From assembly GCF_003334315.1 (NCBI RefSeq), contig NZ_QOWR01000019.1: a DNA stretch of 64,000 nucleotides; one strand, written 5' to 3'. The notes beneath the pieces were generated by a model. The model was not told the DNA's origin, searched no databases, and saw only the letters and a list, made by a program, of their open reading frames with translations. Each line of letters begins with the position of its first letter. Within the stretch, counting starts at the first letter, position 1. The translations under genes and the position numbers were made by a program. Source of the DNA: Escherichia coli (GTDB lineage Bacteria; Pseudomonadota; Gammaproteobacteria; Enterobacterales; Enterobacteriaceae). Shown here piece after piece: positions 4 to 64,000 of the stretch.

Positions 4-90
4 GTAGGCCGGATAAGGCGTCCCCGCCGCATCCGGCACAGGCACCGTGCTGATGTCTGATGCGACGCTGGCGCGTCTTATCAGACCTAC
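4..90. repeat. BIME: two REP (repetitive extragenic palindromic) units in opposite orientation, artJ-artM intergenic
   Basis: GC-rich palindromic units gccggataaggcgt..gccgcatccggca and tgatgcgacgctggcgcgtcttatcag..cctac match the E. coli REP family. Confidence 0.8.
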
Positions 91-6106: not shown

Positions 6107-7537
6107 TTAATCTGTGCTTTGTTCTGCCAGTCTGGCGATTTGTTTTGCCATTCCGCGAAAAATAAACAGATGCGCGGGGATCATCAATAACCAGTAAAAC
6201 AGCCCCGGCATACCGTGCGGATGCCAGAAAGCGCGGACATCGATAGTACGATAGTCGCCTTTATCTTCCAGGCTAAAACACAGTCGTCCCAGCCCCGGCG
6301 CTTTCATGCCAAATAACAACGTAAGTTGTTTTTCCGGTTCAACGACAATCACTTTCCAGCTATCCACCGCATCGCCAGTCTGTAAATATTCGCGCTCCGG
6401 GCGGCCTTTCGCCAGCTTATGACCGATCGCGCGGTCCATCAACGCCCGTGTCTGCCACAAAATATTGCCAAAGAAATAACGCTCTTTACCGCCGATTTGG
6501 TTCACCACCTGCCATAAAGCCGCAAGGCTGGCGGACGTTTTAACGGTAAACCCCGCCTGTTTGGCGAAATAACCGTACTCCGGTCGCCAGCGGGCAAAGG
6601 CCTGAGCGTCGTAGCCCCAGTCGCTGGAGTTGACCAGTTTTTCTTCCTCTTTCAACGTGCTACGTACCGCGTCATCGAAAGCGATCAGCCGTTGTGGGAT
6701 GAGTGCACGTAGCGCGGTATCATCCGCCAGCAGATCGTGTTTCAGCCCCTGAATCAACGCCCTGGCGGTGGTGGGCGGTACGGAAGTAATCACATTGAGA
6801 AACCACACCGAAATCCAGCGGGTGGGGAGGGGGATGGGGATCAACCAGCGGCGCTTACCGCTCACCGCCATAAAATGTTCAAACTGTTGCTGATAACTGA
6901 GCACCTCTGGTCCGGCGGCTTCGAAGATGCGGTGTTCGCTGGCCGGATGATCTAACAACGCCACCAGATAGTGCAGCAAGTTTTCCAGCGCGATGGGCGT
7001 GGTGCGTGAACGTACCCAGCGTGGCGGCGTTAACACTGGCAGGTTGTAGACCATATCGCGCATGACTTCGAACGCCGCTGAACCTGCGCCAACGATAATT
7101 CCGGCCCGAAGTTCGGTCACAGGTACATTCGCTTCACGAAGAATGTCCGCCGTAGCCTGACGAGCACGCAGATGATCCGACTGCTCATGTGGCGGGGCCT
7201 GCAACGAACTGAGAAAGATTAATTGCTTAACTGGTACTTCACGTAGCGCATCGCGGACGTTGAGAGCCACCTGGCGCTCCTGAGCGATAAAATCGCCGCC
7301 TTCGCCCATGCTGTGCACCAGAAAATAGACGGTATCGATATCCTGCAACAGGGCCGGAAGGTTATCCGGCCAGCTGAGATCGACTTTATGGCAACTGACG
7401 TTTGCCAGTTGCAGCTTTGCAAGCCTGTCGACATGACGTGCCGCCGCCAGGATCTGATGCCCTTGCTGGCTGAGTGTGCGCACCAGATGCTGACCAATGT
7501 AGCCACTGGCACCGAGAACTAAAATGCGTTGCGGCAC
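6107..7537 (-). CDS. ybjT: NAD(P)-binding protein YbjT
   Basis: Rossmann motif [14 protein letters not shown]; start set at GTG giving 476 aa (inference). Confidence 0.8.
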
Positions 7538-22517: not shown

Positions 22518-24794
22518 ATGCTCAATCAAGAACTGGAACTCAGTTTAAATATGGCTTTCGCCAGAGCGCGCGAGCACCGTCATGAGTTTATGACCGTCGA
22601 GCACTTGTTACTGGCGCTGCTCAGTAACCCATCTGCCCGGGAGGCGCTGGAAGCGTGTTCTGTGGATTTGGTTGCGCTCCGTCAGGAACTGGAAGCCTTT
22701 ATTGAACAAACCACACCCGTTCTGCCTGCCAGTGAAGAGGAGCGCGATACACAGCCGACGCTGAGTTTTCAGCGTGTACTGCAACGTGCGGTCTTCCATG
22801 TCCAGTCCTCCGGTCGCAATGAGGTTACCGGTGCAAACGTTCTGGTCGCTATCTTTAGCGAACAGGAGTCGCAGGCGGCATATCTGTTGCGTAAACATGA
22901 AGTCAGCCGTCTCGATGTGGTGAACTTTATCTCTCATGGCACGCGTAAAGACGAGCCGACACAGTCTTCTGATCCTGGCAGCCAGCCAAACAGCGAAGAA
23001 CAAGCTGGTGGGGAGGAACGTATGGAGAATTTCACGACGAACCTGAACCAGCTTGCGCGTGTGGGCGGAATCGACCCACTGATTGGTCGTGAGAAAGAGC
23101 TGGAGCGTGCTATTCAGGTTCTCTGCCGTCGCCGTAAAAACAACCCGCTGCTGGTGGGGGAGTCTGGTGTCGGTAAAACCGCGATTGCAGAAGGTCTTGC
23201 CTGGCGAATTGTTCAGGGTGATGTGCCGGAAGTGATGGCTGACTGTACGATTTATTCTCTCGATATCGGTTCTCTGTTAGCGGGCACAAAATATCGCGGC
23301 GACTTTGAAAAACGTTTTAAAGCGTTGCTCAAGCAGCTGGAGCAGGACACTAACAGCATCCTGTTTATTGATGAGATCCACACCATTATCGGTGCGGGTG
23401 CAGCGTCTGGTGGTCAGGTCGATGCGGCTAACCTGATCAAACCGTTGCTCTCCAGCGGTAAAATTCGCGTAATTGGTTCGACAACCTATCAGGAGTTCAG
23501 CAACATTTTCGAGAAAGACCGTGCTCTGGCGCGTCGCTTCCAGAAAATTGATATTACTGAACCGTCGATCGAAGAAACTGTTCAAATCATCAATGGCCTG
23601 AAACCGAAGTATGAAGCGCACCACGACGTGCGTTATACCGCAAAAGCGGTGCGTGCGGCGGTAGAGCTGGCGGTGAAATACATTAACGATCGTCATCTGC
23701 CGGATAAAGCCATTGATGTTATCGACGAAGCGGGCGCTCGCGCACGTCTGATGCCGGTAAGCAAACGCAAGAAAACCGTTAATGTGGCGGATATTGAGTC
23801 CGTGGTGGCCCGTATTGCACGCATTCCAGAGAAGAGTGTTTCTCAGAGTGACCGCGATACCCTGAAAAACCTCGGCGATCGCCTGAAAATGCTGGTCTTC
23901 GGCCAGGATAAAGCCATTGAGGCGCTGACTGAAGCCATTAAGATGGCGCGTGCAGGTTTAGGTCACGAACATAAACCGGTCGGTTCGTTCCTGTTTGCCG
24001 GTCCTACCGGGGTCGGGAAAACAGAGGTGACGGTACAGCTTTCGAAAGCGTTGGGCATTGAGCTTCTGCGCTTTGATATGTCCGAGTATATGGAACGCCA
24101 TACCGTCAGCCGTCTGATTGGTGCGCCTCCGGGATACGTTGGTTTTGATCAGGGCGGTTTGCTGACTGATGCGGTCATCAAGCATCCACATGCGGTTCTG
24201 CTGCTGGACGAAATCGAGAAAGCGCACCCTGACGTGTTCAATATTCTGTTGCAGGTGATGGACAACGGTACGCTGACCGATAACAACGGACGCAAAGCGG
24301 ACTTCCGTAACGTGGTGCTGGTGATGACCACCAACGCCGGGGTACGTGAAACTGAGCGTAAATCCATTGGTCTTATCCACCAGGATAACAGCACCGATGC
24401 GATGGAAGAGATCAAGAAGATCTTTACACCGGAATTCCGTAACCGTCTCGACAACATTATCTGGTTTGATCATCTGTCAACCGACGTGATCCATCAGGTG
24501 GTGGATAAATTCATCGTCGAGTTGCAGGTTCAGCTGGATCAGAAAGGTGTTTCTCTGGAAGTGAGCCAGGAAGCGCGTAACTGGCTGGCCGAGAAAGGTT
24601 ACGACCGGGCAATGGGCGCTCGTCCGATGGCGCGTGTCATCCAGGACAACCTGAAAAAACCGCTCGCCAACGAACTGCTGTTTGGTTCGCTGGTGGACGG
24701 CGGTCAGGTCACCGTCGCACTGGATAAAGCGAAAAATGAGCTGACTTACGGATTCCAGAGTGCACAAAAGCACAAGGCGGAAGCAGCGCATTAA
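22518..24794 (+). CDS. clpA: ATP-dependent Clp protease ATP-binding subunit ClpA
   Basis: two AAA+ modules (GESGVGKT and GPTGVGKT Walker A); 758 aa from MLNQELE. Confidence 0.95.
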
Positions 24795-25005: not shown

Positions 25006-25210
25006 GTTCACTGCCGTACAGGCAGCTTAGAAAAACCTACCGTCTTGGCTAGCGGTTGCAGCGAACGTTCACTGCCGTACAGGCAGCTTAGAAAGGAACA
25101 ATCTTGCAAAGGCTGTGAAAGTTGGCGTTCACTGCCGTACAGGCAGCTTAGAAATTCACAGGTAACATACTCCACCCACCATGTTCACTGCCGTACAGAC
25201 AGATAAAATG
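25006..25210 (+). CRISPR. orphan type I-F CRISPR array remnant: 3 intact 28-bp repeats plus 1 degenerate terminal repeat
   Basis: repeat gttcactgccgtacaggcagcttagaaa at 25006-25033, 25067-25094, 25127-25154; degenerate copy gttcactgccgtacagacagataaaatg at 25183-25210; spacers of 33, 32 and 28 nt; no cas genes in window. Confidence 0.92.
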
Positions 25211-25211
25211 C

Positions 25212-25241
25212 GAAAAAAAAGCTCGCACTTTCGTACGAGCT
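25212..25241 (-). terminator. rho-independent terminator of serW
   Basis: hairpin agctcg..cgagct with A8 on + strand (U-run on minus) directly 3' of tRNA. Confidence 0.7.
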
Positions 25242-25253
25242 CTTCTTTAAATA

Positions 25254-25341
25254 TGGCGGTGAGGGGGGGATTCGAACCCCCGATACGTTGCCGTATACAC
25301 ACTTTCCAGGCGTGCTCCTTCAGCCACTCGGACACCTCACC
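25254..25341 (-). tRNA. serW: tRNA-Ser (long variable arm, 88 nt, encoded CCA)
   Basis: reverse complement reads ggtgaggtgtccgagtggctgaaggagcacgcctggaaagtgtgtatacggcaacgtatcgggggttcgaatccccccctcaccgcca. Confidence 0.95.
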
Positions 25342-25525
25342 AAATTGTTTTGCTGCCAAACCTCATGGGTGGCAACGGGGCGCTACTATAGGGAGTTGGA
25401 GTAAAACGGTCAAGAAGAATTTTAATGATAATTATTGTTTGCTCATACTGTAAACAACTTGTGCAGTATATCTACATCGAGACAAGTTATGGACTTATAC
25501 TTCCAAAGTACTTCATACATATCAC

Positions 25526-25556
25526 AAAATAAAAAGGCCGGTTAAACCGACCTTTT
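25526..25556 (-). terminator. rho-independent terminator of infA
   Basis: hairpin around ggccggttaaaccgacc followed by U-run on minus strand. Confidence 0.6.
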
Positions 25557-25594
25557 ACTCGTTCTTTCTCTTCGCCCATCAGGCGGTAAAACAA

Positions 25595-25816
<222 letters not shown>

Positions 25817-40086: not shown

Positions 40087-40106
40087 TACCCAATTTTTCT
40101 GAATCT

Positions 40107-40133
40107 AAAAAGCGCCTGCGGGCGCTTTTTTTG
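40107..40133 (+). terminator. rho-independent terminator of serS
   Basis: hairpin agcgcc-tgcg-ggcgct followed by T7. Confidence 0.8.
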
Positions 40134-40140
40134 TCTCCCT

Positions 40141-40154
40141 TTGATACCGAACAA
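40141..40154. promoter_or_regulatory. FNR-type site upstream of dmsA
   Basis: ttgataccgaacaa approximates TTGAT-N4-ATCAA; dmsABC is a known FNR-activated anaerobic operon. Confidence 0.45.
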
Positions 40155-40324
40155 TAATTACTCCTCACTTACACGTAATACTACTTTCGAGTGAAAATCT
40201 ACCTATCTCTTTGATTTTCAAATTATTCGATGTATACAAGCCTATATAGCGAACTGCTATAGAAATAATTACACAATACGGTTTGTTACTGGAATCAATC
40301 GTGAGCAAGCTTGAGTGAGCCATT

Positions 40325-44305: not shown

Positions 44306-44923
44306 CTTCGTTAACGTGTCATAACTGGTCATCAAATTACGATAATCAGGAATGTGGTTAGAGAACAACGTCGCCAGTCCTTCAATATCATTACGCCAGT
44401 CGCGATGCAGCTCGCACGCCACGCCGAACCATGTCATCAATTGCGCACCAGCTTGCGACAAGCGATCCCATGCCGAATGCCGGGTAATTTCATTAAAGGT
44501 CCCTGACGCGTCAGTCACGACAAAGACGTCAAACCCTTCTTCAATGGCTGAAAGCGCCGGGAATGCCACGCAAACTTCGGTTACCACACCGGCAATAATT
44601 AACTGTTTTTTACCTGTCGCTTTGACAGCTTTTACAAAATCTTCGTTATCCCAGGCGTTAATATTTCCCGGGCGAGCAATGTAAGGTGTATCGGGGAATT
44701 GTGCTTTCAGTTCTGGAACTAATGGGCCGTTAGGACCGGTTTCAAAACTGGTGGTAAGAATAGTTGGTAAGTTGAAATACTTAGCCAGGTCACCCAGCGC
44801 CAGCACGTTATTTTTAAACTTATCGGGTTCGATATCCCGTACAAGGGAAAGTAAACCAGCCTGGTGATCAACAAGCAAAACGGCAGCATCATTTTTATCA
44901 AGACGAACATACGGTTTGGTCAT
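44297..44923 (-). CDS. ycaC: isochorismatase-family hydrolase YcaC
   Basis: 208-aa ORF, cysteine-hydrolase-like. Confidence 0.9.
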   Translation of the reverse strand: MTKPYVRLDKNDAAVLLVDHQAGLLSLVRDIEPDKFKNNVLALGDLAKYFNLPTILTTSFETGPNGPLVPELKAQFPDTPYIARPGNINAWDNEDFVKAVKATGKKQLIIAGVVTEVCVAFPALSAIEEGFDVFVVTDASGTFNEITRHSAWDRLSQAGAQLMTWFGVACELHRDWRNDIEGLATLFSNHIPDYRNLMTSYDTLTKQK

Positions 44924-63684: not shown

Positions 63685-63801
63685 ATGAAAATAACGACAG
63701 TCGGTGTATGCATAATTAGCGGAATTTTTCCGTTGCTGATTTTGCCCCAATTGCCTGGGACATTAACCCTTGCGTTTCTGACTCTCTTCGCCTGCGGGTG
63801 A
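63685..63801 (+). pseudogene. ycaI: 5' fragment of ycaI (ComEC-family membrane protein) truncated by IS1
   Basis: ORF MKITTVGVCIISGIFPLLILPQLPGTLTLAFLTLFACG runs into the IS1 terminal inverted repeat and stops. Confidence 0.7.
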
Positions 63802-64000
63802 TGCTGCCAACTTACTGATTTAGTGTATGATGGTGTTTTTGAGGTGCTCCAGTGGCTTCTGTTTCTATCAGCTGTCCCTCCTGTTCAGCTACTGACGGGG
63901 TGGTGCGTAACGGCAAAAGCACCGCCGGACATCAGCGCTATCTCTGCTCTCACTGCCGTAAAACATGGCAACTGCAGTTCACTTACACCGCTTCTCAACC
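63797..64000 (+). mobile_element. insA: IS1 left end (terminal inverted repeat plus 5' part of insA), continues beyond window
   Basis: ggtgatgctgccaacttactgatttagtgtatgatggtgtttttgaggtgctccagtggcttctgtttctatcagctgtccc is the IS1 terminus; downstream frame encodes InsA N-terminus [42 protein letters not shown]. Confidence 0.92.

Follow-up and report, generated by a model that had tools for sequence, protein, structure and literature searches.

The closest described counterparts of the locus studied here are the tellurite-resistance and adherence islands of E. coli O157:H7, namely OI-43 at serW and OI-48/SpLE1 at serX. In strain EDL933, OI-43 and OI-48 are flanked by perfect 14-bp repeats, TGGCGGTGAGGGGG, which correspond to the last 14 bp of the tRNA gene. 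The Shigella SRL island has identical repeats, and the integrase belongs to the P4 family (PMC3064760). Precise excision between the two repeats gives back an intact serW and takes place at a detectable frequency in O157 cultures (PMC3064760). The Int protein of SRL-PAI integrates at serX and serW (PMC2297512; PMC7545054). The SRL-PAI has the same 14-bp repeat and a near-identical P4-family integrase, and its integration has been reported for either or both of the two paralogues (PMC3064760; PMC2297512; PMC7545054).

In the present study, we analyzed a 64-kb stretch of the E. coli chromosome, which is hereafter called the window. The window carries the same 14-bp core as OI-43 and OI-48/SpLE1, and it shares the chromosomal site with OI-43. 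Its sequence equals what is obtained when the island is removed in silico from an O157 serW locus. The O157:H7 loci are occupied, having an island of 74-88 kb, an integrase and two copies of the core, whereas the window has one copy of the core and is unoccupied. In comparison with the SRL-PAI, the host and the island cargo are different, and our search of the window for island DNA was performed with O157-type DNA only.

The serW locus of K-12 MG1655 (b0883, between clpA and infA) resembles that of the window even more directly, with the same tRNA, terminator, promoter flank and gene order; in both, the att site is empty and an orphan type I-F array is found toward clpA. The K-12 array differs in that it has one spacer fewer (2 repeats versus 4 in the window) and a 4-nt indel in the shared spacer, but the att site is functionally alike.

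An empty serW attB in E. coli is thus already known and is the usual state. From the results described below, it is very probable that the 3' end of serW in the window is an intact, single-copy and unoccupied attB for islands with P4-type tyrosine integrases (SRL-PAI, OI-43/OI-48, CP4-like).

Structure of the serW locus

The window aligned from end to end with the chromosome of strain HS30-1 (NZ_CP029492.1) at 99.97% identity, and the positions of IS1 were the only difference between the two. The left end of an IS1 (GGTGATGCTGCCAACTTACTGAT...) is located at window 63798-64000 and runs off the window end; it is 38 kb from serW and unrelated to it. HS30-1 has no IS1 at the position of window 63798 but has one within ycaC instead, a gene that is uninterrupted in the window (about 44830-44839). 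In the PGAP annotation of HS30-1, the gene order is artM, poxB, macAB, cspD, clpS, clpA, tRNA-Ser, infA, aat, cydCD, trxB, and further on lrp, ftsK, serS, dmsABC, pflB, aroA, and rpsA to ihfB. This annotation lists only core genes in the span of the window from artM to ihfB, with no recombinase, phage or island gene. The GC profile of 21-29 kb also showed no foreign block, only the expected intergenic dip. Two RNA elements apart from serW gave Rfam matches above the gathering score, that is, naRNA4 (a REP-derived nucleoid-associated RNA) at window 7-87 on the plus strand and the sRNA STnc130 at window 40100-40234 on the minus strand.

The features of the locus are as follows.

22518..24794, plus strand: clpA, core gene and terminator-side boundary of the locus (mapped from the HS30-1 annotation; ORF list)
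25006..25211, plus strand: orphan type I-F CRISPR array with three perfect repeats, one degenerate terminal repeat and three spacers (three matches to Rfam CRISPR-DR4)
25205..25248, minus strand: predicted intrinsic terminator of serW, a hairpin with a U-run, forming the B' arm of attB (terminator scan and fold)
25254..25267, minus strand: 14-bp attB core, TGGCGGTGAGGGGG on the plus strand, equal to the 14 nt that end the tRNA, CCA included (single copy, 0 mismatches to the published and FRIK944 14-mer)
25254..25341, minus strand: serW, intact tRNA-Ser gene with anticodon GGA (ARAGORN; annotated as tRNA-Ser in HS30-1)
25385..25413, minus strand: promoter-like site for serW, TTGACC, 17-nt spacer and TATAGT (consensus scan, 10 of 12 matches; putative promoter)
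25595..25813, minus strand: infA, core gene and boundary on the tRNA 5' side (HS30-1 annotation; ORF list)

ARAGORN found one tRNA gene in the window, and the Rfam tRNA model matched it at 25257-25341 with 53.8 bits. Its sequence was base-for-base equal to both serW and serX of K-12 in the alignment. Since this tRNA-Ser(GGA) gene is located between clpA and infA, it is serW. The serW-specific 5' flank, in which the promoter-like site is found, is unlike the flank of serX, and we used it to tie the population counts described below to the serW locus.

The terminator hairpin occupies 25248-25213 on the minus strand and starts 6 nt past the 3' end of the tRNA. It has a 16-pair stem, a 4-nt loop and a tract of eight U residues. 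Its folding energy is -21.3 kcal/mol (z = -5.2), a value that was not reached by any of 200 shuffled sequences. That is, a GC-containing hairpin and then a U-run are present downstream of the tRNA gene on the same strand, as in an intrinsic (Rho-independent) terminator, and the structure is predicted from its sequence to be active as such. The downstream region of serX has the same terminator, so that the tRNA and about 47 nt of terminator are common to serW and serX.

Beyond the terminator, the perfect type I-F repeats start at 25006, 25067 and 25127, and the degenerate terminal repeat at 25184-25211 abuts the terminator. This array is the known cas-less CRISPR3, alias CRISPR4.1-2 (PMC2886076; nomenclature in PMC3903273), and it lies next to the att site without belonging to it. 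In E. coli N47, cas3f was matched by the spacers at 25034-25066 and 25095-25126, each with 3 mismatches, and cas1f contained an exact 17-nt match to the spacer at 25155-25183. Spacers against type I-F cas genes are those of the 'anti-CRISPR' CRISPR3 array published by Touchon and Rocha (PMC2886076). The original prediction had placed the 3' end of serW at 25254, followed by its terminator and then by a CRISPR remnant, and all three elements were found there by ARAGORN, the terminator scan and Rfam.

When the window was searched with a 25-mer and a 19-mer taken from the 3' end of the tRNA, allowing up to 3 mismatches, no match was obtained except the tRNA itself. The search for the 14-bp core with up to 2 mismatches gave one further match at 6857-6870, which has 2 mismatches and the opposite orientation. 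This 14-mer lies among core genes and about 0.4 such matches are expected by chance, and we therefore rejected it as a second att copy. The integrase of the FRIK944 island, a serW island described in the next section, was compared with the window by tblastn; no homologue was detected, and the best match, 27 residues inside clpA, had an E value of 0.054. About 68 kb of the FRIK944 (O157-type) island gave no match in the window by blastn.

It had been claimed from the sequence that the site has no integrase, no direct repeat of the tRNA 3' end, and no foreign DNA. The claim about the integrase agrees with both the core genes annotated in HS30-1 and the tblastn result, and that about the repeat agrees with the searches by 25-mer and 19-mer. 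The claim about foreign DNA held for island DNA, as judged by blastn, but was too broad as worded, because the CRISPR array is the vestige of a mobile defence module and an IS1 is present at 63798. Taken together, the window has, as an empty attB does, the 3' end of tRNA-Ser(GGA) with the exact core in a single copy joined to the native flank, and neither an integrase nor island DNA. The marks of an occupied or decayed site, that is, a second tRNA 3' segment with island flanks and an integrase gene or pseudogene, were both lacking in the window.

Islands at serW and serX in other strains

In strains with a broken clpA-serW junction, the homology to the window ends 4-7 nt past the 3' end of the tRNA, and an island end with DUF4942, CbtA/YeeU and Ag43-type genes adjoins the tRNA. 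As the first occupied example we took AR Bank #0346, the island of which extends over more than 69 kb and combines IS elements, blaCMY-2 and malX-type modules in a mosaic; this strain was replaced by O157:H7 FRIK944.

In FRIK944, an island of 74,091 bp is located exactly between the last 14 nt of the tRNA and the native terminator, and it is bounded by two copies of TGGCGGTGAGGGGG. Reading from the clpA side, the CRISPR array is followed by the native terminator, TGGCGGTGAGGGGG and the island, with the integrase gene (400 aa) about 160 nt on. On the infA side, a DUF4942 gene is followed by a hairpin terminator of the island (-17.4 kcal/mol), TGGCGGTGAGGGGG running into a complete serW, and infA. 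The native terminator is thus displaced by about 74 kb from serW and lies beside the integrase. The integrase contains the domains Arm-DNA-bind_3, Phage_int_M and Phage_integrase; it is a tyrosine integrase of the P4/CP4-57 type and corresponds to NCBIfam PRK09692 at the domain level. When the island was excised in silico, the FRIK944 locus aligned with window 25127-25603 without interruption across the junction, at 98.1% identity.

The junction anatomy of FRIK944 independently reproduces the published account of OI-43/OI-48 (PMC3064760). The island of EDL933 at serX also has the same 14-mer and the same terminator at its integrase-side junction. The original prediction had proposed both that the 3' end of serW is an integration site for islands and that a comparison with strains carrying islands at serW would be informative. 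This comparison resolved both junctions in FRIK944 and supports the former proposal, together with the 282 of 5426 genomes described below and the published OI-43. That the site in the window is unoccupied, as had also been proposed, is in line with its single core copy, the lack of an integrase homologue, and the match of the excised FRIK944 locus to its junction.

The FRIK944 island contains paired GGCATAC motifs with a spacing of 12 nt. One pair is located about 135 nt inside the integrase-side end (retrieved locus L013, 1418-1436), and another is found about 60-75 nt inside the tRNA-side end (retrieved locus L011, 19840-19858). These pairs may be candidate arm-type binding sites for the integrase.

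A phage collection contained no coliphage attP matching the 3' end of serW. The matches obtained from it were only Burkholderia and Xanthomonas phages with attP of the tRNA-Ser(GGA) type, and tRNA-Ser genes encoded by phages.

Frequency of the empty and occupied states

In order to count the two states at serW specifically, we used a chimeric query that joins the terminator and the tRNA 3' end to the serW-specific 5' flank. The coverage of this query is 100% where serW is empty, and it does not exceed about 72% at an occupied serW or at any serX. The occupied class was counted with the reciprocal chimera, in which an island end and the tRNA 3' end are joined to the serW flank.

The empty configuration was found in 5139 of 5426 complete E. 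coli genomes (94.7%; chimeric query, word size 11), and an independent contiguous query of 226 nt from a different haplotype found the empty junction in 5138 genomes. The genomes with the empty state include K-12, BL21, HS, Nissle and UTI89, and cover all lineages sampled. The junction with an island end was found in 282 complete genomes (5.2%), including EDL933, many O157 and O111 strains, and other strains. The two classes cover all but about 5 of the 5426 genomes.

Two other ways of counting were rejected. A 151-nt query consisting of the terminator and the tRNA gave 5321 genomes; because both elements are also present at serX, an occupied serW goes unnoticed in this count when serX is empty, and the value is misleading. 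The chimeric query in megablast mode gave 4602 genomes, which is an undercount, because terminator SNPs of the Nissle type leave no 28-nt seed, though no island is present there.

The empty state is the majority state, and for this reason it says nothing of the strain beyond the lack of an island here; serX, the second attB and paralogue of serW, is located outside the window. That the strain has no OI-43- or SRL-type island at serW matters little alone.

Proposed mechanism of integration

Given the anatomy of the locus, the uniqueness of the core, the absence of an integrase and an island from the window, the occupied counterparts and the frequencies, all of which were observed as described above, the use of the site can be considered as follows. 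The tyrosine integrase of the island would exchange strands within the 14-bp identity of attP and the tRNA end, a catalytic step that we take from the literature. The tRNA gene would be unchanged by the insertion, because the core is identical in attP and attB and is the very end of the tRNA. Only the downstream context of serW would be swapped, so that a hairpin terminator borne by the island would then follow the tRNA, and the native terminator with a 14-bp stub of the tRNA would be found beside the integrase gene, at a distance of tens of kilobases. In the window, either no insertion would have taken place or an insertion would have been reversed without a scar. The attB of the window is presumably competent for integration, as suggested by its identity with sites shown to be used.

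History of the site

It is very unlikely, in our judgment, that serW of the window once held an island of the OI-43/SRL type that was later precisely excised, so that the empty state would be secondary and not ancestral. A site from which an island had been precisely excised would have the same sequence as one that was never occupied, and the two histories look alike to any sequence test. Such excision is a real process, since integrase-mediated excision detectable in O157 cultures restores a serW equal to the never-occupied sequence (PMC3064760). Against this history, the empty state is found in 94.7% of the genomes and across all lineages sampled. Moreover, the window is 99.97% identical to a commensal strain that has only core genes in this region, and it contains no island fragments. 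Because the empty state is so widespread and island fragments are absent, parsimony favours a site that was never occupied.

Even more improbable is the idea that the CRISPR array is the scar of an island that entered via serW, in which case a degraded type I-F CRISPR-Cas element would be the occupant of the site. Where cas-F genes are present, the type I-F module does bracket serW. E. coli N47, for example, has a complete type I-F system in the order array, cas1f to cas6f, serW, second array and infA (retrieved locus L016, 5028-14630), and in the window the terminal repeat of the array abuts the terminator. The CRISPR module, however, has neither a direct repeat of the tRNA end nor an integrase in its cas-less or its cas-bearing state. 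The array is also located beyond the native terminator, whereas att-mediated insertions land between the tRNA and the terminator. In addition, the cas-less array is found in nearly all E. coli and has been argued to be older than the cas genes (PMC2886076). In the cas-bearing haplotype itself, both the serW allele and the flanks are diverged, a pattern that points to homologous recombination as the means of exchange. In N47, this allele shows a compensatory change of G-C to C-G in the T-stem, by which the att core becomes TGGCGGTGAGGCGG, with one mismatch; at least 99% identity to the N47 haplotype was found in 229 of the 5426 genomes.

The view that serW is just a tRNA gene with a terminator and that the att reading over-interprets a generic tRNA rule, which could appeal to the fact that the original prediction argued from the general rule only and to the lack of a coliphage attP matching the 3' end of serW, is already refuted by the 282 complete genomes in which an island end is joined to serW precisely at the 3' end of the tRNA and by the 14-bp repeat found with an integrase at both FRIK944 junctions, as published also for EDL933 OI-43 (PMC3064760).

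Repeats linked to the tRNA gene and typing of the site

The 3' segment of the tRNA is duplicated in some strains that have no island at the site. In K-12, serX is followed by three full tRNA-linked repeats of 181 bp, each of which opens with the final 19 nt of the tRNA, and the 14-bp att core is therefore present in four copies there (retrieved locus L008, 1023-1568). At serW, two 181-bp units are present in strains OkiPb01690 and cS51a (retrieved loci L014, 13826-14250, and L002, 19648-20074). It had been suggested beforehand that a duplicated tRNA 3' segment near serW would indicate a past or present insertion. This sign is not specific: the three repeats at K-12 serX, each with a core, are free of an island, and so are the two units at serW in OkiPb01690 and cS51a.

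The window resembles these RtT-like repeats only in part. Its terminator module (25208-25256) and the final 49 nt of the 181-bp unit share 98% identity, but the 3'-terminal 19 nt of the tRNA are not repeated in the window. That is, the window has the terminal 49 nt only, and it contains no complete RtT-like unit, no Rfam RtT match, and no second tRNA 19-mer.

We considered whether the repeat arrays and the att system are mechanistically linked, in which case the tRNA and single terminator of the window would be a collapsed product and not the primitive state. Every full repeat unit holds a complete 14-bp core, and arrays would in this case multiply the attB sites. Recombination from core to core, either integrase-mediated or homologous, would then repeatedly build arrays, collapse arrays and excise islands. 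We regard such a link as unlikely.

Occupancy of serW is already typed by PCR across clpA-serW in O157 work, and the serW site of the window, which we regard as an unoccupied attB, is useful as a clean reference sequence for such typing. For automated island callers, the tRNA and terminator shared by serW and serX, and the repeats that duplicate the core, can give false attL/attR assignments or mask occupancy.

In the 'EDL933' assembly GCF_029962285.1, the chromosomal regions of the serX and serW islands are filed as 'plasmids' of 212 kb (NZ_CP124742.1) and 287 kb (NZ_CP124741.1), respectively. These 'plasmids' are probably the result of mis-assembly across the duplicated OI-43/OI-48 islands.
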